Origin: a bacterium | Lineage (GTDB): Bacteria; Patescibacteriota; Patescibacteriia; UBA10025 | Assembly (NCBI GenBank): GCA_021815445.1 | Contig: JAKAGM010000002.1 | Location: forward strand, 307,720-371,719 | Direction: 5' to 3' | DNA: 64,000 bases | Shown: in pieces, positions 4,170 to 47,400 of the stretch | Layout: each line of letters begins with the position of its first letter | Numbering within the stretch: position 1 is the stretch's first letter | Translations under genes and position numbers: made by a program | The notes under the pieces: generated by a model | The model's database searches: none | What the model was told of the DNA's origin: nothing | The model's input: the letters and a program-made list of their open reading frames with translations, nothing else

Positions 4170-4772
4170 ATGAAAAAGAAACACTTCTATCTTTCGCTTG
4201 TTATGGTTATCGTCGCTGTCGGGATTTTAACCGCTGTCATTTCTTCGGGCAAAGGAAAGATAGGAAGCGTGGAGAGCTCCTCAGAAGTGTCGGGCAATAT
4301 ACAGTTTGAGAATGCAATCGGTAAGCGGGCGCCGGATTTTGAGCTTGAAAATACCAACGGCGCCAAGGTCAGTCTCAAACAGCTTCGGGGAAAGGCCATC
4401 GTCCTCTTCTTTAACGAAGGAAGCATGTGCTATCCGGCGTGTTGGAATCAGGTTAAAGAGCTCGCCGCCGACCAACGACTGAACAATGATCAGATTCAGG
4501 CTTACTCCATTGTCGACGAGTCAAAAGGCGCGTGGCAAAGCATCATGAAGAAGCAGCCGGAATATTCGACTGATAAAATGTTGTTTGATACCTCGCGGAA
4601 AGTATCTCTGGCGTATGATGTTCTTTCGCTTCCTTCCTCGATGCATAAAGGAGCATTTCCGGGACACACCTACATTGTGATAGATAAAGAGGGGATAATC
4701 CGCTACGTGCTTGACGATCCGAGCATGGCAATCCGCAACGACCAGATTCTGGCCGAGGCACAAAAGATCTAA
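4170..4772 (+). CDS. Membrane-anchored thioredoxin-like thiol:disulfide oxidoreductase (TlpA/ResA/redoxin family)
   Basis: Start MKKKHFYL, then an N-terminal TM. The motif FELENTNGAKVSLKQLRGKAIVLFFNEGSMCYPAC carries a CxxC-type redox pair in a thioredoxin fold. Confidence 0.75.
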   Translation: MKKKHFYLSLVMVIVAVGILTAVISSGKGKIGSVESSSEVSGNIQFENAIGKRAPDFELENTNGAKVSLKQLRGKAIVLFFNEGSMCYPACWNQVKELAADQRLNNDQIQAYSIVDESKGAWQSIMKKQPEYSTDKMLFDTSRKVSLAYDVLSLPSSMHKGAFPGHTYIVIDKEGIIRYVLDDPSMAIRNDQILAEAQKI

Positions 4773-4786
4773 CCCGTACTTCCCCT

Positions 4787-5683
4787 ATGGATCTTCTTAT
4801 CTCATCATCACTGATTACCGCATTTCTTGCCGGTGTTGCCGCGCTCTTCGCCCCCTGTTGCATTACCGTGCTCTTGCCCGCGTACCTCGCCTCGATATTC
4901 AAAGAAAAGCGCACGGTCTTTCTGATGACGTTTGTGTTTTTTCTCGGGCTGTTGACCATCTTCTTGCCGCTCGGGCTCGGATTCGCGGGTCTCGGGAAAT
5001 TTCTGACGCGAAACCATACGTGGGTCTTTATCGGGGGAAGCATTATTATGTTCGCGCTCGGAACCATGATATTGCTGGGCAAGCATATTTCCCTTCCTGT
5101 CCACCTGCCATCGACGAAGATTACCAATACCGGATCGGTGTATCTGCTCGGTATCTTTTCTGGAATAGCCACAGTATGTTGCGCGCCGGTGCTGGCAGGA
5201 ACACTTACCTTGTCTGTCCTGCCCGGGTCGGTGCTATGGGGAGGCGTATATGCGGTCGTGTATGTACTGGGCATGGTGATCCCGCTCTTCGTCATCGCCT
5301 TCTTCCTTGATGAAACACATGCAATAAAGAAATTGAAGATTTTCCGGGCTACGATGTCGTATTCCATCGGTGCGCGACAGGTGCATTTACGCATCGCCGA
5401 TCTTATTTCAGGTTTTACCTTCCTTCTTATGGGTGTCGTCACGGTGATTGTCGCGATAAAGAATCCTTCCGGCGGAATGGTCTTTTCGGGATCTGCTCTG
5501 CAGACAGCAGTCAATATCACAGCCTCGCAGATTACCGACGCGCTTTCACGCACCTCAGGCTCGGTTCCCGCATTCGCCTGGCTGATCGCCGTAGGCCTCA
5601 TTATTCTCGGTATTGTCGTCTATGCATGGAAAAGGTCGCATGATCCGTTAGCTGACAGCACGAAAGGAGGTGAAGAATTATGA
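4787..5683 (+). CDS. DsbD/CcdA-superfamily polytopic membrane protein with vicinal Cys-Cys motifs; a possible metal or thiol transporter
   Basis: FAPCCITVLLPAYL and TVCCAPVLAG occupy the two positions where CcdA has single Cys residues. Multi-TM protein. The stop overlaps the next start. Confidence 0.6.
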   Translation: MDLLISSSLITAFLAGVAALFAPCCITVLLPAYLASIFKEKRTVFLMTFVFFLGLLTIFLPLGLGFAGLGKFLTRNHTWVFIGGSIIMFALGTMILLGKHISLPVHLPSTKITNTGSVYLLGIFSGIATVCCAPVLAGTLTLSVLPGSVLWGGVYAVVYVLGMVIPLFVIAFFLDETHAIKKLKIFRATMSYSIGARQVHLRIADLISGFTFLLMGVVTVIVAIKNPSGGMVFSGSALQTAVNITASQITDALSRTSGSVPAFAWLIAVGLIILGIVVYAWKRSHDPLADSTKGGEEL

Positions 5684-6300
5684 AAGTGAAATACATTTTG
5701 AATGGAATTATATTCATCTATGCGTTCTTTTTTGTCGTCTTGAACGGGTTTCTGCTTGCCAGCACAGCCGTCATGGCGACCACCGCGATGGTGTCGCCAT
5801 CCCCAACAACTACGCAAACACAGCAGTCGCAAGGTCCCACGAATGCGCAGGTAGCTTCTGTCGTTGCCCAAGTTATCCCTGCGGGCATCCCGCCGGTGTA
5901 CGGATCGGAGCTCAATGTGAATTTCTCGAATCCTGTTGCGAGTCTGACTATCCTTGACGGCTATGACCGAGGCGCAAATAAAATTGATCTTCAGGGCGAT
6001 GCGCTCGCGCGATACATCAAGATAGCAATGAAAACGGCCTGTGAATTCTGTTGCGGAGCAAAAACGCTCGTGTTCAAAGATGGCAGTCCGGCATGCGGAT
6101 GCGCCCATTCAGCGGCAATGCGCGGCGTTGCCAAGTACTTGATCCAAAAACACGGCACTGAATTCACCGATGAGCAAATTCTGACTGAAGTGAATAAGTG
6201 GAAAGCGATATCGTTCCCCAAGCAGACGGTGGAGCGGGCGCTCGCGAGTGCCGGAGGGAGCAGCTCCGTAAATCTTCCCTCGCAAGTGGGCGGATGTTAA
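5680..6300 (+). CDS. Secreted Cys-rich protein ending in LPSQVGGC
   Basis: Signal peptide, a Thr/Gln-rich linker, then the cysteine cluster CEFCCGA...SPACGCAHS. The C-terminus is NLPSQVGGC. Confidence 0.5.
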   Translation: MKVKYILNGIIFIYAFFFVVLNGFLLASTAVMATTAMVSPSPTTTQTQQSQGPTNAQVASVVAQVIPAGIPPVYGSELNVNFSNPVASLTILDGYDRGANKIDLQGDALARYIKIAMKTACEFCCGAKTLVFKDGSPACGCAHSAAMRGVAKYLIQKHGTEFTDEQILTEVNKWKAISFPKQTVERALASAGGSSSVNLPSQVGGC

Positions 6301-6341
6301 CCGCCTCCAATATTCTAATATCCATAATCAATGAATAGCAT

Positions 6342-6641
6342 ATGAGCCAGATTTCCTCCCCGCACGGAGACGTGCTTCACAGACATGAGGATGCCCCGAA
6401 GGACAAGGTTGTTCAAATCCGCCTGAACCGGAGCACATTCATGAGCGGCATTTTACTTCTCTTTGCCATCGTGGTGACGGTGCAGTTCTTCCAGATCAAG
6501 GGCCTCAGGGCTCAGGTGACTAATTCCGGATCCGCACAGCAGCCGTCGGTGTCCGCCCCCGCCTCACAACAACCGGCTGCGCAACCGGCGCAGTCCTCGG
6601 GAGCGTTGCAAAACCTGCCAAGCCAGGTTGGAGGCTGTTAG
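6342..6641 (+). CDS. Small membrane-anchored Gln/Pro/Ala-rich protein ending in LPSQVGGC (alternative start 6441)
   Basis: The C-terminus QNLPSQVGGC is identical to the preceding protein's, with different codons. One TM helix (ILLLFAIVVTVQFF). Confidence 0.45.
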   Translation: MSQISSPHGDVLHRHEDAPKDKVVQIRLNRSTFMSGILLLFAIVVTVQFFQIKGLRAQVTNSGSAQQPSVSAPASQQPAAQPAQSSGALQNLPSQVGGC

Positions 6642-6645
6642 CCAT

Positions 6646-6885
6646 ATGAAGAGAGCCGAGCTAATCTTTTTTTCGCTCGTCGGACTCGTACTCCTAGTAG
6701 TGCTTGCCGCATCATTTGCCCCGCAGGCGCAGAAGTCGTTCCGCAATACCCCGGAAAACTATGCTCGCGCAAAGGCAGCGGAGGTCGCCGGCAACCCTTG
6801 TGCAACCCCGCCGGGGTACACTGATGCCCAATGGCGCCAGCATATGAGCCACCATCCGGATCAATATCCCGGCTGTCTGAAATAA
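6646..6885 (+). CDS. Small membrane-anchored His/Cys-containing protein
   Basis: TM anchor, then NPCATPPGYTDAQWRQHMSHHPDQYPGC. The two Cys and the His cluster suggest metal binding; that reading is inference. Confidence 0.4.
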   Translation: MKRAELIFFSLVGLVLLVVLAASFAPQAQKSFRNTPENYARAKAAEVAGNPCATPPGYTDAQWRQHMSHHPDQYPGCLK

Positions 6886-6889
6886 AGGT

Positions 6890-7630
6890 ATGAATCTCGT
6901 AGCCTTCCCATTTCTCTTCGGCATCCTCGCGTTCTTGTCACCCTGCATTATGCCCATGCTGCAGGTATATTTGTCCTTAGTTACCGGAACAACGATTTCC
7001 GAGCTAACGACAAAAGATCCGGATGCAGAGGTCCGCCGTAGAGTTTTGGGAAGGACTGCGTGCTTCATCCTGGGATTCAGTGTTGTATTCGTACTGGCCG
7101 GTATGTTTGCTGGTTCAGTAGGATCGTTCCTGAAGGAGAGATCGGTCGTGCTCAATTATATCGGGGGGTTGATCATCGTTCTGCTGGGCCTCAAGATGCT
7201 CGGAGTGTTCCAGATGAAATTTCTCAGCAATCTGCATCTAGAGCCGGAGCGATTTCCCTTGCTCAAGAAGGATACCATGGCTGGAGCATTCTTGGTCGGC
7301 CTCTTTTTCGCGGTAGCCTGTTCGCACTGTTTCGGACCGCTGTTGTACTCCACGCTTATCGTTGCTGCCAATACCCAGTCCGCAACCAGCGGACTCGTAG
7401 TGCTCTTGAGCTTCTCTGCAGGCTTGGCTGTTCCGTATTTTATCACTGCCGCAGCGCTGCCGAGCGTTCTCGGGATGCTTCGACGGTTCAGCGCTGCAAT
7501 TACCGTGATCATAAAGGCGAGCGGGGCGTTCCTGGTCATTTTCGGCGTATTGGTGTTCTTCAACCAGTTTCAAATTCTCGCAACGCTTCTGGGCAAGATT
7601 GTTCCATGGGGAAATATCCTTTCCCTATAA
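6890..7630 (+). CDS. ccdA: Cytochrome c-type biogenesis / thiol-disulfide electron transporter CcdA
   Basis: LSPCIMPMLQVY in TM1, then a second conserved Cys motif, CSHCFGPLL. Roughly six TM helices. Confidence 0.8.
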   Translation: MNLVAFPFLFGILAFLSPCIMPMLQVYLSLVTGTTISELTTKDPDAEVRRRVLGRTACFILGFSVVFVLAGMFAGSVGSFLKERSVVLNYIGGLIIVLLGLKMLGVFQMKFLSNLHLEPERFPLLKKDTMAGAFLVGLFFAVACSHCFGPLLYSTLIVAANTQSATSGLVVLLSFSAGLAVPYFITAAALPSVLGMLRRFSAAITVIIKASGAFLVIFGVLVFFNQFQILATLLGKIVPWGNILSL

Positions 7631-7825: not shown

Positions 7826-8209
7826 ATGGCCAAACCTTCATTTCACCTCCTTGGAGACCTTGAGAAGCAGATCATGGAAATTGTTTGGAAACAGGAGCAG
7901 GTTACCGTCAGAGGCGTTGTAGAAATACTCCATAAAAAGCGTGAGATTGCTTATACGACAGTCATGACAGTTATGAACCGGCTTTCCGAGAAAAAGCTGC
8001 TCACCCGAAAGGAAGACGGCGGCGCTTTTGCATATGTAGCCACCCAGAAACGGGAATTATTCATGAGTAGGGCATCCGAAAATGTTATTCGTGGGCTGTT
8101 ATCCGAGTGCGGAGAGGTGGCCATAGCCCAATTTGTTGAAGCACTCGAGGATGTTGATCCGGCGAAGTTAGCACTGCTTGAAAAAAAGATTAGGGAAAAA
8201 CGGTCATGA
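7826..8209 (+). CDS. BlaI/MecI/CopY-family winged-helix transcriptional repressor (no C-terminal Cys-rich metal-binding tail)
   Basis: N-terminal penicillinase-repressor fold (IMEIVWKQEQVTVRGVVEILHKKREIAYTTVMTVMNRLSEKKLLTRK). No CxCx4CxC tail. Confidence 0.8.
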   Translation: MAKPSFHLLGDLEKQIMEIVWKQEQVTVRGVVEILHKKREIAYTTVMTVMNRLSEKKLLTRKEDGGAFAYVATQKRELFMSRASENVIRGLLSECGEVAIAQFVEALEDVDPAKLALLEKKIREKRS

Positions 8210-9258
8210 ATAAGCGAGACAGATCTACATTTTGGTCGTTTGTCCTCTACAGCGCGAGCGGAATATTCGGTATTAGTGCCGCCGCGGTGCTTGGCGGTGC
8301 GCTCCTGCCTCATATATCTTCCTCAGTGGGAATTCTCCTCGCACGCGTGGTGCATACGTGCAGCCAATTACTTTCGACTGTTGCAGGGCGGGATATTTTC
8401 CTCAGCTCATTGAACGCGCTTATTCTGCTTTTCGTGGGAGCCTTTTTCCTGACAGGTGCTGGTCTTTTTTTCCATGCCTCGTGGAAGACTGGACGGTACG
8501 TCTCATCTTTGCGAAAAAAAATTTTTCACCTTTCGGATTCTCGAAAAAAGATGTTCAATACAATGTTTCCGTCACTTACCCTCGTCGGAGTGGATGATCA
8601 GCATCCCTTCGTAGTGAGCGCCGGTTTGTTCAAACCGAAAATATACGTCAGCGCCGGTTTGTTGACTCTCTTATCGGACGATGAGCTTGTAAGCGTTTTT
8701 AAACACGAGGAATACCATTGCAGAAATCGGGACACCGCACGTTTGTTTATCGTGCATTTTTTCAGAAAACTGTTTTGGTTCGTTCCCGGCATTTCAAAGT
8801 TTGCCGCACAGGTCCAGACACTTTTTGAAATATCAGCTGATGAGCACGCTATCCACGCACTTGGTGATGATACGGCACTCGGGAGTGCACTTGTAAAAGT
8901 ACTTCGCCACCCGTCTCATTCGGCGATACCGGAACTCATTCCGGCTTTTTCTTCGGTGAATGATCGCATTGGGCGGCTTCTAGACGCGTCCTACAAACCT
9001 TCGACACGTGCAGCCGTGGCGGTGCCGATTTTTGGGATACTATTCCTGCTTCTTTCGGTGTTCTTTGCCCGAGGCAGTTTCGCCGCACCCAATGTTGCTT
9101 TTGACGGTTTCGAATTGCATAAGATGTCCCAGTCAAGAATATGTCCACAAATTGTTCCCGAACTGCTCATGAGCGTTCCTCAGAACCGTGTCTGCGTCCA
9201 CCCGCAAAATAGTACGCAGGCGCCGTCATGCGGCGAAACACACCCTACAACTAACTAG
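8206..9258 (+). CDS. BlaR1/MecR1-like M56 integral-membrane metalloprotease (anti-repressor), lacking a penicillin-binding sensor domain
   Basis: Four TM helices. The motif HEEYH (HExxH) sits in FKHEEYHCRNRD. At 350 aa there is no room for the C-terminal BlaR sensor domain. Start overlaps the repressor gene stop. Confidence 0.75.
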   Translation: MNKRDRSTFWSFVLYSASGIFGISAAAVLGGALLPHISSSVGILLARVVHTCSQLLSTVAGRDIFLSSLNALILLFVGAFFLTGAGLFFHASWKTGRYVSSLRKKIFHLSDSRKKMFNTMFPSLTLVGVDDQHPFVVSAGLFKPKIYVSAGLLTLLSDDELVSVFKHEEYHCRNRDTARLFIVHFFRKLFWFVPGISKFAAQVQTLFEISADEHAIHALGDDTALGSALVKVLRHPSHSAIPELIPAFSSVNDRIGRLLDASYKPSTRAAVAVPIFGILFLLLSVFFARGSFAAPNVAFDGFELHKMSQSRICPQIVPELLMSVPQNRVCVHPQNSTQAPSCGETHPTTN

Positions 9259-9276
9259 AGAACATGCACTCATTAT

Positions 9277-10230
9277 ATGTCTGATACCATCACAAAAGAT
9301 ATTTGGATCCAGGGTATGCACTGTGACGCATGCGAAAAAACTATCCGCAAATCATTGGAACGCATAGGGGTAGGTGTTGAAGATATTCGTTATACTAATA
9401 ATCGTGTTGAATTACTCTATGATCCGCTGAGAGTGCCTTTCTCCCAAATTGAAGGTGCCGTCGCTGACGTCGGGTACCGCGTGCGAGAAACTCCTCCCGA
9501 GGAATCAGGTCCGCGGGAAACTTCAATTGAGCGCGCCAAAAGGGTTTTTCATTCTTTTCGAAATGACCCTGAAGCGTATCAACTGGAAAAACAAGTCATC
9601 AAAAGCACGCTCGGTACGTTGTTTATTGCGGCGGCATTAGAGTATCTCATCTATTTTATTTTCTTTTGGAACATTCAAGGATTTCTCCATACCTACGGCC
9701 AATATCTTGGGTACTTGATTGTCGGTGTCGTCGCAACAGGAGGAGCGGTAAGGCACTTACGGGCGTATCAGGGGGCCGTTTCATGCATGACAGGAATGAT
9801 GATTGGAATGACCATCGGGATGATTTCCGGCCTGCTTCTGGGGGCAGTTGTTGGCGCAACCAACGGCATGTTCGTTGGCTCTGTTTTCGGGATGGCTGTC
9901 GGTATGGCCGTCGGCGGCTGGGTAGGGGTGTGTTGTGGGATCATGGGACTCATGGAAGGCATGATGGCGGGGCTTATGGGCGGCACTATGGGCGCGATGA
10001 TCGGGGTGATGATGATTCCCGACAGACTCACGCTCTTTTTGCCGATATTCTTTGTCGCATGTCTTGCAATACTCGCAGGTCTTAGCTATATGGTGTACAA
10101 GGAGCACAAAGGCGCGCGAGACGAGGTAAAGTTGTATGGATTCTGGCCGTATACTTTTATCAATTTTGCATTCGTTCTTGCGGGAACCATCATCATCGTG
10201 TGGGGACCCAAGGCGGCATTTTTACGTTAA
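9277..10230 (+). CDS. HMA (CopZ-like) domain fused to a Met/Gly-rich polytopic membrane domain
   Basis: N-terminal GMHCDAC heavy-metal-associated motif. The membrane part is glycine-zipper/Met-rich (GMMIGMTIGMISG...GMAVGMAVGGWVGVCCGIMGLMEGMMAGLMGG) and includes a vicinal CC. Confidence 0.65.
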   Translation: MSDTITKDIWIQGMHCDACEKTIRKSLERIGVGVEDIRYTNNRVELLYDPLRVPFSQIEGAVADVGYRVRETPPEESGPRETSIERAKRVFHSFRNDPEAYQLEKQVIKSTLGTLFIAAALEYLIYFIFFWNIQGFLHTYGQYLGYLIVGVVATGGAVRHLRAYQGAVSCMTGMMIGMTIGMISGLLLGAVVGATNGMFVGSVFGMAVGMAVGGWVGVCCGIMGLMEGMMAGLMGGTMGAMIGVMMIPDRLTLFLPIFFVACLAILAGLSYMVYKEHKGARDEVKLYGFWPYTFINFAFVLAGTIIIVWGPKAAFLR

Positions 10231-10236
10231 CGAAAA

Positions 10237-10461
10237 ATGGATACTCTTACGCTTTCAATTTCGGGCATGCATTGCGCATCCTGCAGTAAACTGATCACTA
10301 TGGACCTGGAAGACATCGGCGTGACAGCCAGTATTGATCGCGACACCGGAAAGGGCAAAGTTACATTTGATCCTCAAAAAGTTTCGCAGGACCAAATACT
10401 CGATCAAATCAAAAAAAGCGGTTATCAGGCGTCAGTTATCACGGGTGGGACAGCACAATGA
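10237..10461 (+). CDS. copZ: Copper chaperone CopZ (single HMA domain)
   Basis: 74 aa with GMHCASC. Confidence 0.85.
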   Translation: MDTLTLSISGMHCASCSKLITMDLEDIGVTASIDRDTGKGKVTFDPQKVSQDQILDQIKKSGYQASVITGGTAQ

Positions 10462-11216
10462 ACGTCACTCAATTACCGCTTGCACTTTCTTTTGTCTTCG
10501 GTGTTCTTTCCATCATATCCCCCTGCGTGATAGTTTTGCTGCCCGCGTACTTGGCCACCATCACGGGGTTCAGCATCGAAGAGCTCACTTCAGCAGAACA
10601 CGAGAGCATTGTCCTTCGAAGGATACTTGGAAATGCGCTCGGGTTTATTCTCGGCTTCTTCCTGGTTTTTATCCCTCTAGGTGCGCTGATCGGTGTGGCG
10701 GCAACTGCGATAGGAAGCGCACGATCGGTTTTCGCGGTCGTCGCGGGCGTCATCGTCGTGCTCCTCGGGATGAATTTCCTGTATCCGCTCCCTTTTCTCA
10801 GGTGGATCAACACCGATGTCCGGATTCGCTGGAAACCTCGCGGCTATTCGTTCATCAGTAATATTTTCTTCGGCGCCGTATTCGCTTTTGTATGGACTCC
10901 CTGCGTTGGACCGTATCTCGTGGCTGTCACAGCTCTGGTCGGGTCGACGGGAGACATCGGCAAAGGCGTAGCGTACTTTTCTCTCTACGCACTCGGTCTG
11001 GCGATAAGCATGCTCGTATTTACTGTCTTTTACACCAAAGTGGCATTCGTGACGAATTTTCTCAAACAACACTCGCGGTCTATCCAAGTAATCAGCGGAA
11101 TTCTCCTTATCACCATCGGCATTCTCATGATATCCGACAAACTCTATCTTACCAACATTGCTATCAATAAATTCTTCGGCGGTTTCCAACCCGAATCGTG
11201 GTTTATTAATTCATAA
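10458..11216 (+). CDS. ccdA: CcdA-family thiol-disulfide transporter (second copy)
   Basis: ISPCVIVLLPAYL in TM1, with a second Cys motif TPCVGPYL. Confidence 0.8.
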   Translation: MNVTQLPLALSFVFGVLSIISPCVIVLLPAYLATITGFSIEELTSAEHESIVLRRILGNALGFILGFFLVFIPLGALIGVAATAIGSARSVFAVVAGVIVVLLGMNFLYPLPFLRWINTDVRIRWKPRGYSFISNIFFGAVFAFVWTPCVGPYLVAVTALVGSTGDIGKGVAYFSLYALGLAISMLVFTVFYTKVAFVTNFLKQHSRSIQVISGILLITIGILMISDKLYLTNIAINKFFGGFQPESWFINS

Positions 11217-11227
11217 TATACAGCACT

Positions 11228-11659
11228 ATGGCCTCACAAAAATCAGACAGTTCGCATTTTATCAGAAATATGATGATCGTCATGGGCATTGTCACTGCTC
11301 TCAGCGGTGCAGCTGCCTGGCGTCTCGGTTCACGGGCGACAATTACGCCGAGAACAAGTGACACCACGGTTGCCGACGATTTGTCCGGAAGCGCGCAAGA
11401 CGCTGTTTCTATCACCGTAGCGTCCTCAGGATATACTCCGGGGGAAATCACGGTACCTCAGGGCAAGAAAGTTCGCCTCAACCTTGTCACCAACGGCACG
11501 TACGGATGCATCCGCTCTTTTGTCATCCCGAAACTTGGGATTTCAAAAACTCTCCCGACAAGCGGCACGACAACCGTCGAGTTTACTCCGACGGAAAAGG
11601 GGACACTCGCGTTCCAGTGTTCCATGGGGATGTTCAGGGGAAATATTAAAGTCATATAA
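11228..11659 (+). CDS. Cupredoxin-like (Cupredoxin_1/EfeO-N-type) protein with N-terminal TM anchor
   Basis: C-terminal YGC...FQCSMGMFRGNIKV copper-site-like motif. Paralogous to the next gene. Confidence 0.6.
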   Translation: MASQKSDSSHFIRNMMIVMGIVTALSGAAAWRLGSRATITPRTSDTTVADDLSGSAQDAVSITVASSGYTPGEITVPQGKKVRLNLVTNGTYGCIRSFVIPKLGISKTLPTSGTTTVEFTPTEKGTLAFQCSMGMFRGNIKVI

Positions 11660-11665
11660 ATTTTC

Positions 11666-12037
11666 ATGGACCCGCGCCAACTGATTGGCATTGTTCTGAT
11701 CGCACTAGTCGTAGGGCTTTTTTTTCTGTGGCTGAGGTTCCAGCGGCGCCAAGAGCGCGCCTCAGAGAGCGGTGGTATCCAAGAGGTTACCATTCTCGTC
11801 AAGGGAGCGTACGATCCGAACGTGATTACCGCAAAGGCCGGCATACCCCTTCGTATCCATTTTAACCGGCAGGAAGATACTGACTGCTCCCGGTTTGTTA
11901 CCTTCGATACGCTCCATCTAAGAAAGAATTTAAAATCCTTTTCGACAACCGAAATCGAATTTACCCCAGAAAAAGCGGGCGAGTATCCTTTCGCATGCGA
12001 TATGGGCATGTATCAGGGAAAGTTGATCGTAAAATAG
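11666..12037 (+). CDS. Cupredoxin-like protein (tandem paralog)
   Basis: FACDMGMYQGKLIVK C-terminus with the same architecture. Single TM anchor. Confidence 0.6.
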   Translation: MDPRQLIGIVLIALVVGLFFLWLRFQRRQERASESGGIQEVTILVKGAYDPNVITAKAGIPLRIHFNRQEDTDCSRFVTFDTLHLRKNLKSFSTTEIEFTPEKAGEYPFACDMGMYQGKLIVK

Positions 12038-12046
12038 TAGAGACAT

Positions 12047-14341
12047 ATGGGACAGCAGACGACGACATTATCACTTCGGGGAATGCATTGCGCGAGTTGC
12101 GCGCAGTTGATTGAGCGCGGGCTCAAAAAGGTTCCGGGGGTGCAGCAAGCCAACGTAAATTACGGCACCGAACGAGCCCATGTAGTGTTCGACTCGGTGA
12201 CTGCCTCGGTTGATTCCTTGATTCGGGGCGTGGAGAATGTCGGGTATCATGCCAAGGAACTAAAAGAAGACCGTCAGTCGCGCCAGTCAGAAGACGACGA
12301 ACGTCGCCGGGAGATACAGAAAATCAAGACAAAATTTTTTATCAGTCTCGTCCTATCCCTCCCCGTGCTCGTGCTCAGTATGGGCATGAAGATTGTTCCC
12401 GCGATCGAAAATATACCGAATCGCGAATGGATCCAGTTTCTCTTTGCGACGCCCATTCAGTTTTGGGCCGGGTGGCAGTTCTATCGTGGATTCTGGGGGG
12501 CGCTGAAGGCCCGTACGGCGAATATGGACAGTCTCATCGCCCTCGGCACCTCCGCGGCGTATTTTTACTCCTTAGTCGTTATCCTCAAGCTTGTTGAGGG
12601 GGAAGTATACTTTGAAATAGGGAGCATTCTGATTGCATTCGTTCTCCTGGGCAAATGGCTCGAGGCGCGAGCCAAAGGCAAGACAGGAGAAGCCATCAAA
12701 AAGCTCATGGGCCTGGCGCCCACTACTGCGTTTGTTATTCGCGGCGAGAGGGAGCTGGAGATCCCGCTCGAACAGGTGGTCGTCGGGGATCATATCCGGG
12801 TGAAACCGGGGTCGAAGATTCCTGTTGACGGCATGGTTGAAGATGGCGTTTCGTCGGTTGATGAGTCAATGATAACCGGCGAAAGCATTCCAGTAGAAAA
12901 AAGCGCCGGAACGGCGGTGATCGGCGGAACTATCAATATCCACGGCTCATTCGTCTTCCAGGCGAAAAAGATTGGGAAAGAAACGTTACTTGCCGGAATT
13001 ATTAAGCTCGTTGAGGATGCTCAGGCGTCCAAGGCGCCCATTCAGCGTTTTGCCGACCGGGTATCGGCGTATTTTGTCCCTATAGTCATCGCGCTCGCGC
13101 TCATTACCTTTCTGTCATGGTATTTTATCGCGGCCCAGCCGTTTGTTTCCAGTTTACTCGCGTTTGTCGCCGTGCTAGTCATCGCCTGCCCCTGCGCGCT
13201 CGGTCTCGCCACTCCTACGGCAATTATTACTGGCACGGGACTGGGCGCGTCGCGGGGCATTCTCATCAAAGGCGGTGAAGCGCTTGAAGCAGCCAGAAAA
13301 ATCGACACGGTGGTTTTTGACAAGACGGGGACCCTGACGATAGGCAAGCCGCTGGTCACGGATATTGTCCAGCTTGAAGAAGGCCAGAAAGCGCTCACCT
13401 TTTTTATTCATCAGATGGCCGGCACGCATATTGAAGATATCCTGCTCCAGGTCGCCGCATCACTCGAGGCGCAATCGGAGCACTCGTTGGCTGAGGCCAT
13501 TGTCAAAGAGGCAAAAGTTCGAAAATTGCCGTTATTTGCCATACGGAATTTTTCCGCGCAGCCGGGCAGAGGAGTGTATGCTGAAATTGTTCCCGCAGAC
13601 GGCGTTACATCAACAGTCAATGTACTTCTAGGTAATAGGAAGATGATGGTCGAAGCGGGGATACCTCTAGGTTCCGCCGAATCCTTTATGCATGCACTTG
13701 AGGAACAGGGCAAGACAGTGATGGCGGTCGGCATACTCGGCCAGCAGGGATCTACGCATGTTGTTGCGGGGCTTATCGCCGTCTCTGATGTTCCAAAGCA
13801 GGATGCCAGAGAAGCGGTTCGCGCGCTCACAGAACGTGGAATTTCTGTCGCGATGATTACCGGCGACAACAGGAGGACCGGAGAGGCTATCGCGCGGCAG
13901 CTGGGCATCACCCGAGTTCTGGCCGAAGTATTGCCCCAGGACAAAGCCGACGAAGTAAAGAAACTTCAGGCAGAAGGGAAGAAAGTGGCTTTTGTCGGGG
14001 ATGGAGTCAATGATGCTCCGGCGCTTGCCTCGGCAGATCTCGGCATTGCCATCGGCTCGGGGACTGACGTTGCGCTCGAGGCCGGGCAGATTGTGCTGGT
14101 AAAAAACAATTTACTCGATGTCGTCAGAGCTATCCGACTTTCTCAGGCGACGTTTCGTAAAATTGTCCAAAATCTTTTTTGGGCCCTTATCTACAATGTC
14201 GCCGGCATACCCATCGCGGCAGGGGCATTGTACGGGGTGCTCGGATGGCAACTGAGACCCGAAATTGCCGGAGCGGCTATGGCTCTGTCCAGTGTCTCTG
14301 TTGTGACAAATTCTCTTCTTTTAAAGCGATTTCGAGCATAA
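12047..14341 (+). CDS. copA: Copper-translocating P1B-type ATPase CopA
   Basis: N-terminal HMA (GMHCASC), CPC motif ([11 protein letters not shown]), DKTGTLT phosphorylation site and the GDGVNDAP hinge. Confidence 0.95.
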
Positions 14342-14426: not shown

Positions 14427-15209
14427 TTGCGTCTAAAGGGCAAGTTACCTTCCTTATGGTATACTGGAATCATTATGGCTGGTATCCCACCACTAGAACC
14501 CGTAAAAAAGCCGTTGGTACTCCGATGGTGGTTTTTGATGACAGTTTTTTTGGCCGTAATAATAGCCGGTTCGTTTGGGATGTTAGTGTATGAAAATTAC
14601 CGCGCCCTCCAGAAAGGTGAGATAAGCATTGCAGGAGGTATCACGCGGGATCCGAACGCTACGGCGACAAATGTAGCGATTGCCAATGTGGTCACTGATG
14701 ACGACCCTTCTCTTGGTCCTAAAGATGCCAAGGTGGTCGTAGTCGAGTTTGCCGATTTTCAATGTCCGTATTGTCAGGAGGCATTTCCCATTATCAGGGA
14801 GCTTACGGTGAAGTACGCAGACAAGGTCCGGTTTATTTATCGTGATTTTCCCGTGGGCAGTGTGCACCCGGACGCCCAAAACGCGGCAATAGCAGCGTCG
14901 TGCGTAGCCAAGCAGGATCAGGTGAAGTTTTGGCTCTATCATGACAAACTTTACCTGAACCAGGAAGATTTAGGCCAGGACGCACTCTTAAGATACGCCC
15001 TGCAGGTAGGCGCAGACGAACAGAAGTTTCTCGCATGCATCAATGATTCGAGCGTTGCCCAGGAGGTTCAAAATGATTATCAGGACGGCATTATCGCCGG
15101 CGTGACGGGGACTCCGACATTCTTTATAGACGGCAGGCGGGTACCGGGGGTGATCCCTCTCGATATCTTCACAAAGGCGCTTGATTCCGAACTTTCCAAA
15201 CAACAATAA
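14427..15209 (+). CDS. Membrane-anchored DsbA-like thiol:disulfide oxidoreductase
   Basis: FADFQCPYCQEAFP CxxC motif in a DsbA fold. N-terminal TM. Alternative start at 14475. Confidence 0.75.
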   Translation: MRLKGKLPSLWYTGIIMAGIPPLEPVKKPLVLRWWFLMTVFLAVIIAGSFGMLVYENYRALQKGEISIAGGITRDPNATATNVAIANVVTDDDPSLGPKDAKVVVVEFADFQCPYCQEAFPIIRELTVKYADKVRFIYRDFPVGSVHPDAQNAAIAASCVAKQDQVKFWLYHDKLYLNQEDLGQDALLRYALQVGADEQKFLACINDSSVAQEVQNDYQDGIIAGVTGTPTFFIDGRRVPGVIPLDIFTKALDSELSKQQ

Positions 15210-15356
15210 ACCACAGACGTAAACAGTCGGTCACCCTACGCCAGTCCAATTCTTTCTTTGGTCGCTGACATGAGAAAGTGAAGCGGGTTGACTACTTTAC
15301 GCCTGCTGGTATACTAGGACGACTACCTCTAATTATTTTTTAAAAGTTTCGTTACT

Positions 15357-16136
15357 ATGGAGAAAGAACAAAAGATAACTCACCAATCAGAGGACGGTAT
15401 TTTCCAGGCGTCGCCAAAAGTGACGTTTTACTTGGGATTGCTGTCGGGTATCACGCTTGTCAGCGTCATCGGTTTCTTTTTAACCTTTTCGATGCTACGA
15501 AGCGGATCTGTCGTGACAAAGAACACAAACTCAGGAACCAATGGGACGGTCGCCGGTGCAGATACAAACACGAATACTGCTGCTGCTCCTGCAGCTGCCC
15601 CGACAGCACCCGTTGATATCAAACTCACCGCTGATGACCACGTGAAGGGTAATGCAAATGCCAAGGTAACTCTGGTAGAATATTCTGACTTCCAGTGCCC
15701 GTTTTGCGCTACAGTCAGACCAACATTGGATCAAGTTATGAAGGACTATGGGGATAAAGTAAAACTTGTGTATCGCAATTATCCTCTGACTTCACTGCAT
15801 CCGATGGCCCAAAAGGCGGCAGAAGCATCAGAGTGCGCATCTGAGCAAGGGAAATTCTGGGAGATGCACGATAAACTCTTCGACCAGAATACTGCGGGCA
15901 CGATGAGCGTGGATAACTTCAAGAAAGCTGCCGGAGAGTTAAAACTCAACCAGAGCCAGTTTGATACCTGTCTCGACACAGGAAAGTATGCGAGCAAGGT
16001 TACAGCCTCCGAGACCGAGGGGACTTCATTCGGCGTGCAAGGCACCCCGGCGACTTTCGTCAACGGCGTGCTTATTTCCGGTGCGGTGCCATATGCGCAG
16101 TTTAAGACTGCGATAGACAACGCATTGAGCTCCTGA
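15357..16136 (+). CDS. Membrane-anchored DsbA-like thiol:disulfide oxidoreductase (paralog)
   Basis: YSDFQCPFCATVRP. An Ala/Thr-rich linker follows the TM anchor. Confidence 0.75.
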   Translation: MEKEQKITHQSEDGIFQASPKVTFYLGLLSGITLVSVIGFFLTFSMLRSGSVVTKNTNSGTNGTVAGADTNTNTAAAPAAAPTAPVDIKLTADDHVKGNANAKVTLVEYSDFQCPFCATVRPTLDQVMKDYGDKVKLVYRNYPLTSLHPMAQKAAEASECASEQGKFWEMHDKLFDQNTAGTMSVDNFKKAAGELKLNQSQFDTCLDTGKYASKVTASETEGTSFGVQGTPATFVNGVLISGAVPYAQFKTAIDNALSS

Positions 16137-41456: not shown

Positions 41457-44400
41457 TTGCGTTTCATCTCTCTAGGACAATTTAAGGAAAAAATCAAGCG
41501 AAACAAAAGGTTTGATTTTCGCTCTCTTCCGAAACTCCTCAGTCTCGAACAAGTGAGCGAGATTCTTGGCGTCCATCAAAATACCCTCCGCAACTGGGAC
41601 AACATCGGCAAGCTGAAATCTGTCAGGATTGGAAAGCGCCATGACAGGAAGTACGAACGTGATCGGATCGAGAAACTTTTCCTCGACATGCGCGCCTCAC
41701 AAGCAGGGGCAAAGAGAGACGCCCAGAAAAACGGAAAGAAACATAGGCGAGGCGCGGAGCGCAGGAATGAAGGCCCGCTTCTCGGCTTTTGGCTGATAGG
41801 GAATGTCCGTTCAGTGATCATCTATGGCCTTCTCGGATTGGTGGTTTTCTTTTTTTCTGTCCAGAACATGTCGCTTGGCAAGATACTCTTTGCCAGAGCG
41901 GAGAATGATGCGCTAGTAACCATGCGGCTACAGTCGGCAGATTGTTCCGGATGGCTCAATCCAGAAAAAGCAAGGTTTATCGACGCACTCGCGAAGACTC
42001 CGCTCGATGAATTCCTTGAGACCAATTCCGCGGTGTACTCAAATCAATTTGCTTTCCGCAGTGCAGGCCCCCCCGCGCTTAATGAAGTGCCCGGCCAGCC
42101 CGTGCAGCCCGAGAATACAGCGGCAAACACCAGCGCCGCACCGGTAAATGATGCGGCGGCTCCTCCCGCCAACACTGCTCCCGCACCCGTTCCATCCGCC
42201 GATCCTGCCCCGGCTTCTTCTGACCAGACGGCTCAGGTCAATCCGCAATTAATATGCCAGGGATATACGTTCGACCAGCCGGTCCCTGACGGTTCTCGCT
42301 TAGAAAAAGCGACCCTCGTAGTCTCGTTCGCGGCTGACACCTTTGCAAACAACGAAGACGTCGTTGATTTTTCTTACTCGTTCAACGGCAAGGACTGGAA
42401 GAAGCTCAGTTCTTTTGCCCTGCTCCAGGATATGAGCAATGCGACAAATGACGGCTACTTGTCCTATCCCATCGAAGTAAGCTCCTTCGATGATATTAAA
42501 AACCTCTCTGTCCGCGTCGACTACAACGCCTTTCCCGCGACTCAAGGTTCGAGAGCTTTTTTCGACGGCGCGGCGCTTGATGTCCTCATCCGCAAGCCCC
42601 CCCCTCCGAAGCTCGCGAATGAACTTACGCAAAGCACGACAATCGTAAAAGCCGACGTTGCCCCTTCAGAGGATCCGACGCTTGACGTCACAGTCGAAAA
42701 AAAATCAACCCTCGACTTCCTCGGGGTCGGTCCCACCACGCGCGACGTCCAGTCTGTGACAATCACCGATCCCGGCGGCAATACTAAGACAGTGAATCTT
42801 GATATCCAGGATAAGCAGGTAGGAAAGAATACCGTGGCTCAATATGTTATCCCAAAAGAAGATCTCTCCAGGCCTGGTCTCTATAAGGTGAGCATGCAGG
42901 TAGAACAGGACGGGTATATCCAAGAGGTTTCAAAAGAATTCAGCTGGGGAGTCATCGCAGTCAACGTGAGGTCCTCGGTCATCGAACCGGATACGTACAC
43001 CGAAGTCGGAATGTCGGTCCTCGATGACTTTGGGCACGCGCAGTGCGCCGCTTTCATCGAGGTGACGGTGCGCCATCCGGGAAATTTTGTGGAAAAATTC
43101 TCCACAACTGATAAAACAGTGGTAAAAAATCCCACCTGCAAGGACCAAAGTGTAACAAATGAGCCGGATTATTCGGCATTTTTTACCACAACGACAGTGG
43201 GGAAATATACCGTCGACGTTACGGCTACAACAGAGAAGGGGACGCACACCATTTCCGATTCTTTTGAAGTGAGAAGCAATCCGCAGTTTACCATCGAAAG
43301 GACTGAGTTTCCTACGCGCATTTTCCCTTTTGTGGATTACCCGGTCAAATTCACCGTCACCTCTCAGCAGGATTTCACGGGGGTCTTTATGGAAAAAGTC
43401 CCTGTCGGTTTCCAGATTTACGATATCACTCAGCGCGGGGCGGAGCTTGGCGGAAGTAACGACCCGCAGTATAAAGTCATCACCTGGCCGGTCGCTCTCA
43501 CCGCGGGGAAGCCGTACACGCTCGGGTACACGTTCAATCCCCCCGACCAGGTGCCTTTTCTGTATAAACTCGGGCCGGCAAATATCGGTAATTTTACGGA
43601 AGCCCGCCAGTGGCAGATTGCGTCTGATGCGGCATGCTCGTCCGCAGGATCCGGTGCCTGGACCACGACAGCCACCTGGTCTGGGTGCAGGGTAGGCGGA
43701 CCCATTGCCGGCGATACCGTACAGATTAATTCCGGGCACATGATTACGATTTCAAACAGTACCGCGGTAGCTGCAGCAAGTGTCACCATTATCACGAATA
43801 ACAGCGCCACGGTGAACGGTCTTACGTTCGGAAACTCGGGTTCTTCATTGGCTATTACTGGCGCCATTACCATCCCTGCGGCCACGGCGTCGGGCGGATC
43901 GCTCGTTGCCGTAGATGCCGGAAGCATTACCACTACAAGCGGGACCAGTTCAGTGTCCATATCAGGCGCAGCGGCGCTGACCAGTATTTTTAGAATTAGT
44001 ACAGGGTCTGTTACTTTGACTGGTGGCGTTACATTTGGTGGCACGCAATCGAATGCGCAGCTCACATTCACAGGCGCCGGTTCACTGACTATCGGGGCCG
44101 GCATGGGTACCGGAGGTACGTTTACCAAGAGCACGAGCACGGTCACCTTCAACGGCACCGGAGCGCAGAATATTACCGGGTATAACTACAACAACCTGGT
44201 GGTCAATAACGCCGGCTTGACGCTCACAACGGTTCAGGATGGCGCTAATACATTCACGGTGGGCGGCACCACGACAATTACTGCCGGCACGCTGACCATG
44301 GGAAACTTCGCGCACACCTTTACCGGCGCGACCTCGGTTACAGGAACCCTGAACACAAGTGGCGGCACTACGGGTAATCGGACATTTACCGGGGCAGTAA

Positions 44401-47400
44401 CGGTTAATAGTTCCGGTACGTGGGATTTATCCGGGCAAAATCCGGCGACAATTTTCGCAAACGGCATAACGGTCAGCACCGGGGCGACGTCATTCAATAA
44501 CGGCACCGGAACGGTAGCTTTTAACACAAATAACCAGGCGCTTGCGGGTTCCGTAGGTATGACTTTTGGCGGGACTGCGACTATAGCCAGCGGTGTTACA
44601 TTGACGAATAACAACACGGGCACGGTTAATTTCAGCGCGGCTACTAATTGCCTTACCGGCGCCAGCGCAACCTTATCGATTTTTACGACCGGGACCAATT
44701 CAACCACCCAATGCGCCAGCGCTCTTCTGGGTGCAGGCGGATCCAGCACCGGCTTGTTAAATCCTAGCGGTACCGGGAGCACAGTTGAGTACAACGGGGG
44801 CAGCCAGACGGTAAAAGCGCATAATAGTACGAATAATTATGTCAATATTAAGTTAAGCGGCTCAGGCACCAAGACGCTCACGACTACCGATGTTACGTAT
44901 ACCGGTAACTTCGATATTACCTGCTCGTCGGCCTGCTCGACTGCTCTTGTGGTCGCCAACACCGCTATCCAGGGTACCCTGACAGTCGGTGCAAACGCGA
45001 CCTTCACCGCCGGCGCATTCGCTCTCACGGTAACCGGGACCACCAATGTGCAAAATACCGGCGTTTTATCGATAACATCGGCCACCGGCACCAAGGCGTT
45101 TAACGGCGACGTCACAATCGACAACGGCGGGAGGTGGAGTGTCGCTATATCGGTCAACTTTACATTGCCGGGCAATTTGACAAACAACGGCACATTCACT
45201 CCCAGCACCGGCACCTATACGCTGTCAGGCGCAGGAAAAGCAATCTCCGGCACTTTTGCCAGCCCCTTTACCACCGTCACCCTCACCGGCGGCGGCGCTC
45301 AGAATAATGCGGGGACTTTTACAACGGCAACGCTGAATGTGAATGCCGCGTTTGCCAATACGGGAACGATTACTGTCACCTCGGCTTTGGCCGGGACAAA
45401 TACATTGACTAACAGCACGAATGGAAATTTGAATATTAATGTGGCGGCGGCGAGTTATACGCTCACCGGCCTTGCGGCAAGCGCCTCGGGTAATACAGTT
45501 TCATGGGGATTTGCCGGCGCGCAGACCGTCACTCCGTCGATTAGCTACTACAACCTTACTCTGGCCGGCAGTGGCGCCAAGACACTGACCAACGTAACTA
45601 CGGTTAGCAACAATCTCACTATGGCAGGTACAGCAACTGCCACTATTGTTACGGCCACCATGGCTATCGGCGGAGATTTGGTAGTGGGCGGAGGGACAAC
45701 TATCACTATCGGCGCCACTACGACTATCGGCGGCGGTGATATTACGACTTCCGGCACTTCGGCTACAGTGGGCACTTCAGGCACGCCGACAGTGACCATT
45801 TCCGGCACAGGGAGTCTCGGCGGCGGCACATCACCGGGCCTGACTTTTTACGACCTGACCATTTCTGGTACGCAGACTATCAACGACCCTTATGCCATGA
45901 CCATCAATCACACACTGACGGTCAACGGCACGCTTAACGGCACGGGAAGTCCCGCAACGCTGGGCAGTATCGTCGGTACGGGCACTATTACGATGGCCAG
46001 CCCGTCGGCGTGGCTCGTGTATCCAACTGCCTCAATTAATTTCGGCACCACTTCCGGCTCTACGGCATGGACATTCTATAGCATGACAGTGAGCGCCGTC
46101 CTTGCAAGCGCCGATGTCACTCTTACTACGCAGGCAGGCACCGGTGATATTACCTTTAATGGCACTTTGCAATTGTCCAGTTTTGGCGACTCGTTTTATA
46201 CCAATTTAAATGCCGGCGGCAGAAATTGGATTATGTCGGCTACGAATAATGCAAAGCCCTTTGAGCTCGATGTCGGCGGCGCCGGTGTCCTGATAGCCAG
46301 TACTTCTACGTTCCAATTTACGGGCAATAATGCCTCCGGCAATGTAACCCTGCAAAATGCCACATATAATAATCTGACTTTGGGCGGGGCATCCGCCGAA
46401 ACTTTTGACACTGAGGCCTCGCTGACGGTTTCCGGCACGCTGAACGTTGCCGCGAACGGCACTTTGGCCATCGGCAGTACGCACACCGTGACGCACAGCG
46501 GCGCCACATTGACCCTAGCCGGAATCATCTCCGGCGCCGGACGGCTGGCGTATCAGAGTGCCACGGCATTTCCTACTACGGGGACCATTTCATCGATCGT
46601 GCGATTCGATGCGACGAATAATGATCAAACAATGTCAGCCCGCACATACGGCGGCAACGTCGAGATTTACAACGTCAGCAGTTCATTTACGCGGGCCGTC
46701 ACCATGACCGCGACTGCTACCCAGGTGATCAGCGGCTCCCTAAGCATCAATGCCGCTGGAACTGCCGGGATCACCCTCGATGCATCGGTAAACAACCCGA
46801 CGGTCACTGTCGGGGGGAGTATCTCTTCAACAGCGGGCGGAGGGGGGCTTCAAGTGCTTTACGCAGGTACCGGCTCGTGGACTGTCGGCGCGAACTTCGA
46901 TATGACCAATATCCAGCTGACCGTAGGTACGGGAAACACGATTATAATGTCCGGTACGGGGACCTTTACTTCCGGTGGGTATAACATGCAAAATCTTACG
47001 CTCTCCGGAACTATTACACTTGCAAATGCCGCCCATACGGTATACGGCAACCTCGATATGACGGGGGGGACCATTACCGCCGGGACGTCAACAATGTATA
47101 TGAGAGGGACGGCAAATTTGGTTGGCGGCAACCAGAGTCTCTATAATCTGACCGCAAATGGTAACGCCAATACGCTGACCGTTACCTCCAATGTTACAGT
47201 GACGAATGTGTTGACTATCGGCTCGGTGGGGGACAACAACAACGATACGATGTCCATAAATGGCGGTATCAGCGTGACTTCCGGCACATCGGGTACCGTC
47301 ACGCTCTCGGGAAGCGGGACTGATACCATCTCCGGCGCGGGAACATTGGTAATGCAAAACTCCAACCTGAATACTCTCGGCGTTCTCTCTTCGAAGGTGA

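Follow-up and report, generated by a model that had tools for sequence, protein, structure and literature searches.

Prokaryotic membrane families that move Cu(I) or hand it over are few, namely the P1B ATPases, RND/Cus, CopD/YcnJ and the CcoA-type MFS proteins. A copper system sharing several components with the locus analysed here is copY-cupA-copA of Streptococcus pneumoniae (CupA structures 4F2E and 2MRY). CupA, which has been described as confined to a few streptococci, hands copper to the N-terminal metal-binding domain of CopA (PMC7558416), and because of this reported hand-over pneumococcal CupA would act at the cytoplasmic face of the membrane. A comparable set of genes is present in a stretch of 64,000 nucleotides from a bacterium of the Patescibacteriota (positions 307,720 to 371,719 of contig JAKAGM010000002.1, assembly GCA_021815445.1), which was analysed as a whole and is referred to here as the window. 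The window likewise carries a BlaI/CopY-family repressor, an anchored CupA homologue and a Cu(I) P1B ATPase. However, the pneumococcal system includes neither CopZ nor a counterpart of the gene that is the subject of this work (positions 9277..10230 of the window, + strand), whose product we call X. In addition, the N-domain of CopA is a cupredoxin in pneumococcus and an HMA domain in the window, and the window repressor, which goes together with an M56 protease, is devoid of the Cys motif of pneumococcal CopY. The cupredoxins that accompany the X family, for their part, mostly look extracytoplasmic, unlike pneumococcal CupA.

X is a protein of 317 amino acids (aa) in which an HMA domain is followed by a membrane domain with seven transmembrane (TM) helices rich in Met, Gly and Cys. 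It belongs to an uncharacterised family that is conserved in ultra-small archaea and bacteria, and its locus is a variant of the cop system with a membrane component not previously described and with no fold match in the PDB. It is very likely that X binds Cu(I)/Ag(I) as a partner of CopZ, CupA and CopA. We further propose, with a probability of about 0.5, that X is a membrane relay for Cu(I), and possibly also for silver, which would lead from the HMA chaperone to an outside CupA-like cupredoxin and would operate beside CopA. This reading rests on the fact that all the partners of X are Cu(I) proteins, on its conserved Cys, Met and His residues, which are soft-metal ligands, together with a few carboxylates, and on the presence, in genes and in fusions, of a Cu(I) donor or acceptor on either side of the membrane.

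A gene family with fused and split forms

The open reading frame (ORF) at 9277-10230 (+) starts with ATG and is present exactly as it had been given in the original prediction, which regarded it as a novel fusion and raised the possibility that a frameshift had merged two genes. It is virtually certain that X is the product of a real gene and a member of a real family. Run SRR13240876, in its independent Logan assembly, and the metagenome-assembled genome GCA_027341205.1 (contig DAIENG010000002.1) both encode an identical 317-aa protein, and 120 homologues align to X from end to end, the linker included. Because of the identical protein in an independent assembly and the end-to-end homologues, an artefactual merging of copZ and a membrane gene by a frameshift or an assembly error was ruled out and retains practically no probability. 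Natural split forms, with copZ ahead of a gene for the TM part only, are known and might have favoured the artefact, but the fused form was found in 41 of 78 species-level loci (the set to which gene-context counts refer unless another number is given). Moreover, the linker is alignable across homologues, with E104, at the start of TM1, conserved in 97% of the sequences, and a separate copZ is also found downstream in the same window.

A search of 5.8 billion proteins rendered 626 homologues of X. The first ca. 120, almost without exception full-length proteins of 295-330 aa, share 35-69% identity and show the architecture of an HMA domain plus a membrane domain, and natural homologues made up of the membrane domain only are 220-250 aa long. 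A profile built from the membrane-only homologues retrieved 696 clusters at 50% identity from 1.84 billion representatives, 433 of them with E<=1e-10. Relatives of X were found in the genomes of 318 GTDB species, the best 80 of which correspond to 77 DPANN archaea (Woese-, Pace-, Nano-, Aenigm- and Micrarchaeota) and three bacteria of the candidate phyla radiation (CPR). One of the latter, Parcubacteria GW2011_GWA2_48_9, has an X that is 75% identical and the same gene order as the window. The fusion is therefore not a novelty peculiar to the genome in which it was noticed, given the 626 homologues and the relatives in 318 GTDB species; databases already list members of the family under unspecific labels ('HMA domain-containing protein', 'cation transporter', 'CopZ'). 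Full-text searches of the literature turned up no account of the family. In 38 of the 78 loci a separate small HMA ORF abuts the start of the membrane gene, fused and split forms being of roughly equal frequency, and the stop codon of copZ and the start codon of the membrane gene often overlap. This arrangement is consistent with the suggestion, made when the gene was first noted, that the membrane domain is fed directly by a chaperone domain of its own.

The HMA domain and the linker

The N-terminal domain (aa 9-67; 9301..9477, +), ferredoxin-like and predicted to be cytoplasmic, is an ordinary member of PF00403, which it matches with 32.1 bits, above the gathering cut-off of 24.8. The metal-binding loop GMHCDAC (aa 13-19; 9313..9333, +), with C16 and C19, was read directly in the sequence; both its MxCxxC pattern and the fold of the domain are those of a canonical metallochaperone, as had been anticipated. 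In the AlphaFold2 (AF2) model the order of the elements is beta-alpha-beta-beta-alpha-beta, with strands at 5-12, 33-38, 43-48 and 68-70 and helices at 17-29 and 55-64, and Foldseek matched the domain to CopZ (6ff2), to the N-domains of Bacillus subtilis CopA and to MerP with target TM-scores of 0.75-0.86. The two Cys residues of the loop are kept in all the HMA-bearing homologues (109 and 110 of about 110). Between this domain and TM1 there is a K/R-rich linker containing a short helix (aa 83-96; 9523..9564, +) according to the AF2 secondary structure, and the segment preceding TM1 carries a mean of 4.6 K+R in the family.

Fold, topology and conserved residues of the membrane domain

AF2 monomer models of X, built with an alignment of 120 sequences, reached a mean local confidence (pLDDT) of 94.4 and a predicted TM-score (pTM) of 0.85 for the full-length protein, and values of 95.4 and 0.90, respectively, for the membrane part alone. 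The membrane domain (aa 102-309; 9580..10203, +) was modelled as seven TM helices, at 102-129, 136-163, 170-196, 198-220, 222-245, 251-277 and 289-309. In the 120 sequences the mean content of K+R amounts to 10.2 on the predicted cytoplasmic side vs 1.7 outside, so that a topology with the HMA domain inside and the C-terminus outside is predicted by the positive-inside count. The cytoplasmic side is also marked by the K or R that precedes the pair C219-C220 in 88 of the 120 sequences.

The most peculiar part of the protein is a core of 78 residues spanning TM3 to TM5 (aa 170-247; 9784..10017, +), in which 17 residues are Met (21.8%) and 21 are Gly (26.9%), the mean Met content of the long ORFs in the window being 1.7%. 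Among the open frames of at least 200 aa in the window, this core has the highest Met count per 78 aa, with the 99.9th percentile lying at 13 Met. The very high Met density announced in the original prediction is thus confirmed, and the two strings that it quoted are present in X, GMMIGMTIGM at aa 173-182 and MEGMMAGLMGGTMGAMIGVMM at aa 226-246. As for the claim that about 230 aa are built from GxxxG/GxxxM repeats, the repeats are there, but they occupy the ca. 78 aa of TM3-TM5, the other four TM helices being of ordinary composition.

A Gly is found at every fourth position 13 consecutive times, from 173 and 177 up to 221 (173 + 4n, n = 0-12), and further Gly residues of the zipper are located at positions 224, 228, 232 and 236, all of them invariant or nearly so. 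X thus contains at least three consecutive (G/A/S)xxxG units in a TM segment, that is, a transmembrane glycine zipper, the definition of which as GxxxGxxxG is due to Kim et al. 2005 (as cited in PMC8890360). Since TM3, TM4 and TM5 are connected by one-residue turns in the model, the zipper is predicted to pack three consecutive helices of a single chain. The confident AF2 monomer makes use of the zipper within one chain, and therefore, as far as the model goes, an oligomeric glycine-zipper channel would not be needed.

Conservation is concentrated in the same region. The mean frequency of the most common residue is 0.79 in TM3 and 0.85 in TM5, to be compared with 0.40-0.55 in TM1, TM2, TM6 and TM7 and 0.42 in the HMA domain. 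Nine Met residues (M174, M175, M178, M182, M223, M234, M238, M241 and M245) are identical in the 120 sequences, and M171, M226 and M230 are conserved in at least 97% of them. Also highly conserved are C170 (88%), C219 (87%), C220 (95%) and H160 (92%), the acidic residues E227 (96%, otherwise Gln) and D249 (99%), and T195 (96%) and N196 (99%) in the outer turn. By the helix limits of the model, C170 (start of TM3), the vicinal pair C219-C220 (9931..9936, +, read as TGT TGT, in the turn between TM4 and TM5 that is predicted to be cytoplasmic) and H160 (where TM2 ends) are at the cytoplasmic face, and T195-N196 and D249 are at the outer face. Between the two faces the Met residues may be read as a ladder of about seven depths, which from inside to outside would be M171/M223, M174-175/M226-E227, M178/M230, M182/M210/M234, M206/M238, M241 and M198/M245. 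This register was derived from sequence, model helix limits and conservation and not from coordinates.

In a divergent sub-branch represented by P0210 and P0212, C170 and E227 are both replaced by His, that is, one ligand by another. These two proteins have no HMA domain and bear long N- and C-terminal tails rich in Cys, His and Met, such as the C-terminus ...MACGAGMKCGAMMKNSDK, and they may have a different arrangement for entry or exit of the metal.

The membrane part did not match any Pfam-A family at E<=10 or any NCBIfam model at E<=1, a profile search found no sequence relative in the PDB (best E=0.2), and Foldseek found no fold match in the PDB either with the full model or with the TM-only model (best TM-score 0.28, E>=0.3). 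Hence the view that this is a domain without an assigned function was borne out by homology searches in Pfam, NCBIfam and the PDB. Membership of X in MerT-, Ctr-, CcdA- or PacL-like families was considered and is unsupported by sequence at the same Pfam and NCBIfam thresholds. In particular, X is not a member of DsbD_TM/CcdA, with no match to PF02683 or PF13386 at E<=10, whereas neighbouring proteins do match. An internal repeat relating TM3 to TM5 was also considered, but the Gly and Met registers differ between both helices and no duplication is claimed.

Conserved gene context and domain fusions

The copper connection of X, which the original prediction had drawn from sequence features such as its Met-rich motifs, is strong and is upheld in about 80 species by synteny with CopZ, a CupA-type cupredoxin and a P1B ATPase, as well as by fusions to cupredoxins. 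A cupredoxin is encoded in 75 of the 78 loci, directly downstream of X in 57 and directly upstream in six, and the motif CxMxM is present in 90 of the 95 cupredoxins adjoining X. The core of CopA, a Cu(I) P1B ATPase, was found in 74 loci, on the same strand and no more than 4 kb downstream in 59 of them. In the archaea the gene order is copZ - X - cupredoxin - (HTH regulator) - P1B ATPase, HTH standing for helix-turn-helix. Regarding the location of the cupredoxins, the residues flanking the membrane anchors of those near X (n=83) are more positive on the N-terminal side in 49 cases and on the C-terminal side in 15, with 19 ties, and three lipobox-like signals were seen. Judged by these flanks, the stand-alone cupredoxins next to X would be mostly extracytoplasmic, which is what the balance of the counts points to.

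In several relatives the partners are joined in one polypeptide. A Cupredoxin_1 domain directly follows TM7 at the C-terminus of P0155, P0226, P0248 and a protein of locus L037. Of these, P0155 has kept a CxxC within its highly basic N-terminal tail and is encoded upstream of a P1B ATPase, and P0248 bears, between TM7 and the cupredoxin, a SurA_N-like domain, which is normally found in extracytoplasmic chaperones. A different kind of fusion is P0219, encoded at positions 301-1800 of L086, a 2.1-kb contig of JGI metagenome 3300009285. It has the structure HMA-X(TM1-6)-HisKA_3-HATPase_c, having dropped TM7; copZ lies upstream of its gene and a response-regulator gene downstream. Since TM7 is missing, the kinase would be cytoplasmic, in agreement with an N-in, seven-TM, C-out topology for X. 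P0219, the single kinase fusion seen, is a candidate copper-sensing two-component system of a new type.

Proposed function and alternative explanations

The relay could work as follows. The cytoplasmic HMA domain, or the separate CopZ in the split forms, would give Cu(I) by ligand exchange to a cytoplasm-facing entry cluster on X made up of C170, C219-C220 and H160. From there Cu(I) would step along the thioethers of the invariant Met residues on TM3, TM4 and TM5 until it arrives at T195-N196 and D249 at the outer face, where a membrane-anchored, mostly extracytoplasmic CupA-like cupredoxin would take it over. The glycine zipper would allow TM3-TM5 to pack tightly enough for a relay between side chains, and E227, E104 or D249 could provide a counter-charge or be involved in proton coupling. 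X would thus function outward in copper detoxification alongside CopA, in parallel to it or assisting it. That the relay spans the membrane and ends on an outside cupredoxin is a plausible but tentative part of this proposal. We infer the identity of the metal, the crossing of the membrane by the ions, the direction and the coupling, as well as any channel or transport activity of X. The original prediction had offered a channel or a sink; storage as a sink is probably not what X mainly does, since one protein holds few ions and the conserved residues span the membrane up to its outer face.

Several points weigh against a relay of this kind. Passive movement of a cation outward opposes the membrane potential, X has no energy-coupling module, and Cu(I) export is already carried out by CopA. 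In the window, copZ and ccdA stand between X and the cupredoxins, and one of these two cupredoxins would, to judge from its flanking residues, be cytoplasmic in the manner of pneumococcal CupA; in the family at large, the 15 C-flank-positive anchors of the 83 and the 19 ties do not fit an outside cupredoxin. Finally, the kinase fusion P0219 shows that binding or sensing alone can suffice as the function of the domain.

These points bear directly on the alternatives. X could be a non-translocating membrane chaperone or scaffold that binds Cu(I) both at the cytoplasmic face and inside the bilayer, docks on CopA and holds the cupredoxin nearby so as to feed the pump or organise it, without any ion crossing X. 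Such an accessory of the 'effluxosome' type would play a part similar to that of the PacL proteins of mycobacterial P-ATPases or of the tether that anchors CupA in the membrane. The CopA core in 74 of the 78 loci and the lack of an energy-coupling domain are in line with this, as is the use of the domain in P0219 as a binding or sensing module; CupA needs to be tethered to the membrane to function and its partner-specific contacts matter (PMC7558416), and accessory membrane proteins of P-ATPases exist (PMC13460109). Yet seven helices with near-invariant residues at both faces (N196 and D249 on one side, the Cys cluster on the other) and Met at all depths exceed what an anchor needs, and it is to the cupredoxin, placed opposite the HMA domain across the membrane, and not to CopA, that the family is most tightly linked and fused. 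We regard a scaffold as unlikely. It can also be the case that the flow is reversed, with X as a Ctr-like importer: the outside cupredoxin would capture and possibly reduce copper, and X would conduct Cu(I) inward, down the membrane potential, to the Cys cluster and thence to the HMA domain or CopZ. Such a logic would be shared with eukaryotic Ctr1, in which a Met filter and GxxxG packing are combined with cytosolic Cys/His residues that deliver to an HMA chaperone, and inward flow would require no energy source. An importer would, on the other hand, be counter-productive if induced together with an efflux pump, and in nearly all loci X shares its operon with the exporter CopA and repressor-type regulators; there is, besides, no match to the Ctr family, and X has seven TM helices vs three in Ctr. 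Import is therefore improbable, even though CupA reduces Cu(II) in vitro (PMC7558416).

A role as a copper sensor, in which the core of X would be a TM input domain that signals here to the BlaR1-like protease and the BlaI-like repressor, is still less probable. The architecture of P0219, located between copZ and a response regulator, would be in favour of it, as would the start of X 18 nucleotides past the M56 protease gene and the lack of the CopY Cys motif in the repressor, on account of which another copper sensor is required. Nevertheless, only 2-3 of 83 loci (those of the CPR, L006 and L007, and L052) contain the M56/BlaI pair along with X, the regulators of the archaeal loci are unrelated HTH proteins, the kinase fusion was seen once only, and it is the cupredoxin and CopA that are the constant partners. 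The vicinal Cys pair in the TM region together with an HMA domain recalls MerT plus MerP and the MerTP fusions, and the HMA region of X gives a weak score of 33.4 bits with the NCBIfam MerTP model, so that X might be a MerT/MerF-like transporter for mercury or some other soft metal instead of copper. That score, however, is to be set against a cut-off of 180 bits and concerns the HMA part only, the TM part having no match to any Mer family (Pfam, E<=10; NCBIfam, E<=1). Among the genes called in four loci inspected no MerA- or MerR-type annotation was found, Pyr_redox_2 giving only a weak match on a Rieske/FAD protein cut at the upstream end of L001 and L002, and the neighbours are Cu(I)-specific, namely CupA with C...CxMxM and an ATPase with CPC, YN and MxxSS. 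Hence a Mer-type function is very improbable.

With the relay of Cu(I) to an outside cupredoxin as the preferred reading, a more far-reaching version of it is possible but doubtful. In this version the X domain would represent a new class of prokaryotic translocators that carry Cu(I)/Ag(I) without ATP, a single-chain wire consisting of a Met ladder, gated by a cytoplasmic cluster of three Cys and a His, that leads from the HMA domain to the outside cupredoxin and that has also been recruited as a kinase input and exchanged between DPANN and CPR. CupA-type cupredoxins would then be widespread extracytoplasmic acceptors of copper and not a streptococcal, cytoplasmic peculiarity. The domain is compact, the membrane-only form having ca. 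220 aa, and it is linked by synteny and fusion to the HMA chaperone, the CupA cupredoxin and CopA. If X relays Cu(I), a thioether ladder within a bundle of glycine-zipper helices would represent a new principle of soft-metal transport, and it would have to be reconsidered how copper is detoxified in two large radiations of ultra-small prokaryotes, most of them uncultured.

The cop genes of the window and their surroundings

The position attributed to X, between a BlaR1-like protease and CopZ/CopA, agrees with the Pfam calls. The string of genes starts with the Penicillinase_R repressor (7826..8209, +; 127 aa; Pfam, 100.9 bits). Its C-terminus (...LEKKIREKRS) has no Cys, and hence no CxCxxxxCxC site as found at the C-terminus of CopY, and the CopY operator TACAnnTGTA does not occur in the window; the repressor is BlaI-like rather than a CopY proper. 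It is followed by the BlaR1-like M56/M48 membrane metalloprotease (8206..9258, +; 350 aa; Pfam, HEEYH motif), which has no penicillin-binding sensor domain, stops 18 nucleotides before X and has a C-terminal tail with Cys, His and Met, CPQIVPELLMSVPQNRVCVHPQNSTQAPSCGETHPTTN. The protease and the repressor may constitute a protease-based copper-sensing switch of the operon.

Downstream of X lie the stand-alone CopZ (10237..10461, +; 74 aa; Pfam HMA, 41.5 bits) and a CcdA/DsbD_TM thiol-disulfide membrane protein (10458..11216, +; PF02683), and then two CupA-like cupredoxins in tandem. The first (11228..11659, +; Cupredoxin_1, 62.8 bits) has an N-terminal anchor and a CxMxM site within FQCSMGM. 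Its flanks are outside-like; in L006 and L007, both from CPR, the matching anchors carry three K/R in the N-flank and one in the C-flank. The second (11666..12037, +) was identified by phmmer, with E=1.6e-17 against S. pneumoniae CupA (2mry/4f2e); its DTDC and CDMGM align with PSPC and CGMNM, respectively, and its flanks are inside-like, with RFQRRQER after the TM helix. The anchor flanks of the tandem thus suggest opposite orientations, and the same pair is found in L006 and L007; the first cupredoxin would be oriented to the outside and the second to the inside, like pneumococcal CupA. The last gene of the string encodes CopA (12047..14341, +; Pfam E1-E2_ATPase, Hydrolase and HMA), a P1B ATPase of the Cu(I) type that has an HMA domain at its N-terminus. 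Its translation shows CPC, YN, MxxSS and FDKTGT. The signature of P1B-1 Cu(I) ATPases consists of CPC in TM4, YN in TM5, MxxSS in TM6 and DKTGT.

The cop genes are surrounded by genes for extracytoplasmic thiol-redox proteins, all on the + strand, at about 4170-7630, 10458-11216 and 14427-16136. They comprise an AhpC/TSA-Redoxin protein within about 4170-7630, three DsbD_TM/CcdA-like proteins (4787-5683, 6890-7630 and the already mentioned 10458-11216) and two DsbA/Thioredoxin_4 proteins (14427-15209 and 15357-16136). The setting of cop genes among thiol-redox genes resembles the logic of the Scs ('suppressor of copper sensitivity') proteins, and such a set would fit a role in keeping the Cys ligands of the outside cupredoxins reduced. 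Within the first of these regions, two ORFs without a Pfam match (5680-6300, 206 aa, and 6342-6641, 99 aa, both +) have an identical C-terminus, NLPSQVGGC followed by the stop codon, which was found nowhere else in the six-frame translation of the window. The former also has a Cys-rich block, CEFCCGAKTLVFKDGSPACGCAHSAAMRG. The shared end could be a C-terminal signal for sorting or processing, or else a metal site. The window further includes a giant ORF of 3700 aa (41457-52559, +) in the ORF list.

Comparison with known systems

As a proposed Met-rich Cu(I) relay, X would resemble MerT/MerP, Ctr1 and CusA in function; in architecture it resembles calcyanin. In the mercury-uptake proteins MerT/MerP and MerTP, as proposed for X, an HMA domain passes a soft metal to a Cys pair in the membrane, and both fused and split versions exist. 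MerT, however, has three TM helices and no Met ladder and shows no sequence kinship with the membrane part of X in Pfam or NCBIfam, and the context of X is cop and not mer. In Ctr1/SLC31, Met thioethers serve for conduction or selectivity, GxxxG motifs provide tight packing, and an HMA chaperone receives Cu(I) from cytosolic Cys/His residues. Ctr1 forms a homotrimer with three TM helices per subunit and two Met rings and acts as an importer, whereas X is predicted to be a seven-TM monomer with Met at about seven depths, is encoded in efflux operons and has no match to the Pfam Ctr family at E<=10. In CusA, which works with CusF, Cu(I)/Ag(I) travels step by step through the membrane protein over Met pairs or clusters, coming from or going to a chaperone rich in Met, and acidic TM residues couple protons. 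CusA is nonetheless an RND trimer with 12 TM helices and large domains in the periplasm, to which X shows no homology; X is also far smaller, and its proposed entry is a Cys cluster.

PacL, a component of the 'effluxosomes' formed around mycobacterial metal P-ATPases, has a single TM and a composition unlike that of X, and X does not match the PacL-type Pfam family DUF1490 at E<=10. What both have in common is that they are small membrane proteins encoded beside a P1B ATPase, PacL being considered to aid efflux (PMC13460109).

In architecture, the likeness is to calcyanin, in which a CoBaHMA domain is followed by three long GlyZip motifs, each with about 12 units in 50 aa and a central turn (PMC8890360). 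X also combines an N-terminus of the HMA superfamily with a long Gly-x3 zipper, of 13 units across the TM3-turn-TM4 hairpin. Nevertheless, CoBaHMA has no CxxC and has conserved basic residues, X having a canonical CxxC, and the zipper of calcyanin, which is centred on Gly-Pro and is not rich in Met, is tied to calcium carbonate biomineralisation (PMC8890360). In X, set against calcyanin by description only, the zipper forms a single long hairpin whose turn is T-N-G instead of G-P. Moreover, GlyZip2 of calcyanin matched PdsO (PMC8890360), whereas the TM part of X has no NCBIfam match, PdsO included, at E<=1. With regard to the pneumococcal system, CupA homologues turn out to be standard components of the cop loci of DPANN and CPR, a distribution far wider than that stated for CupA (PMC7558416).

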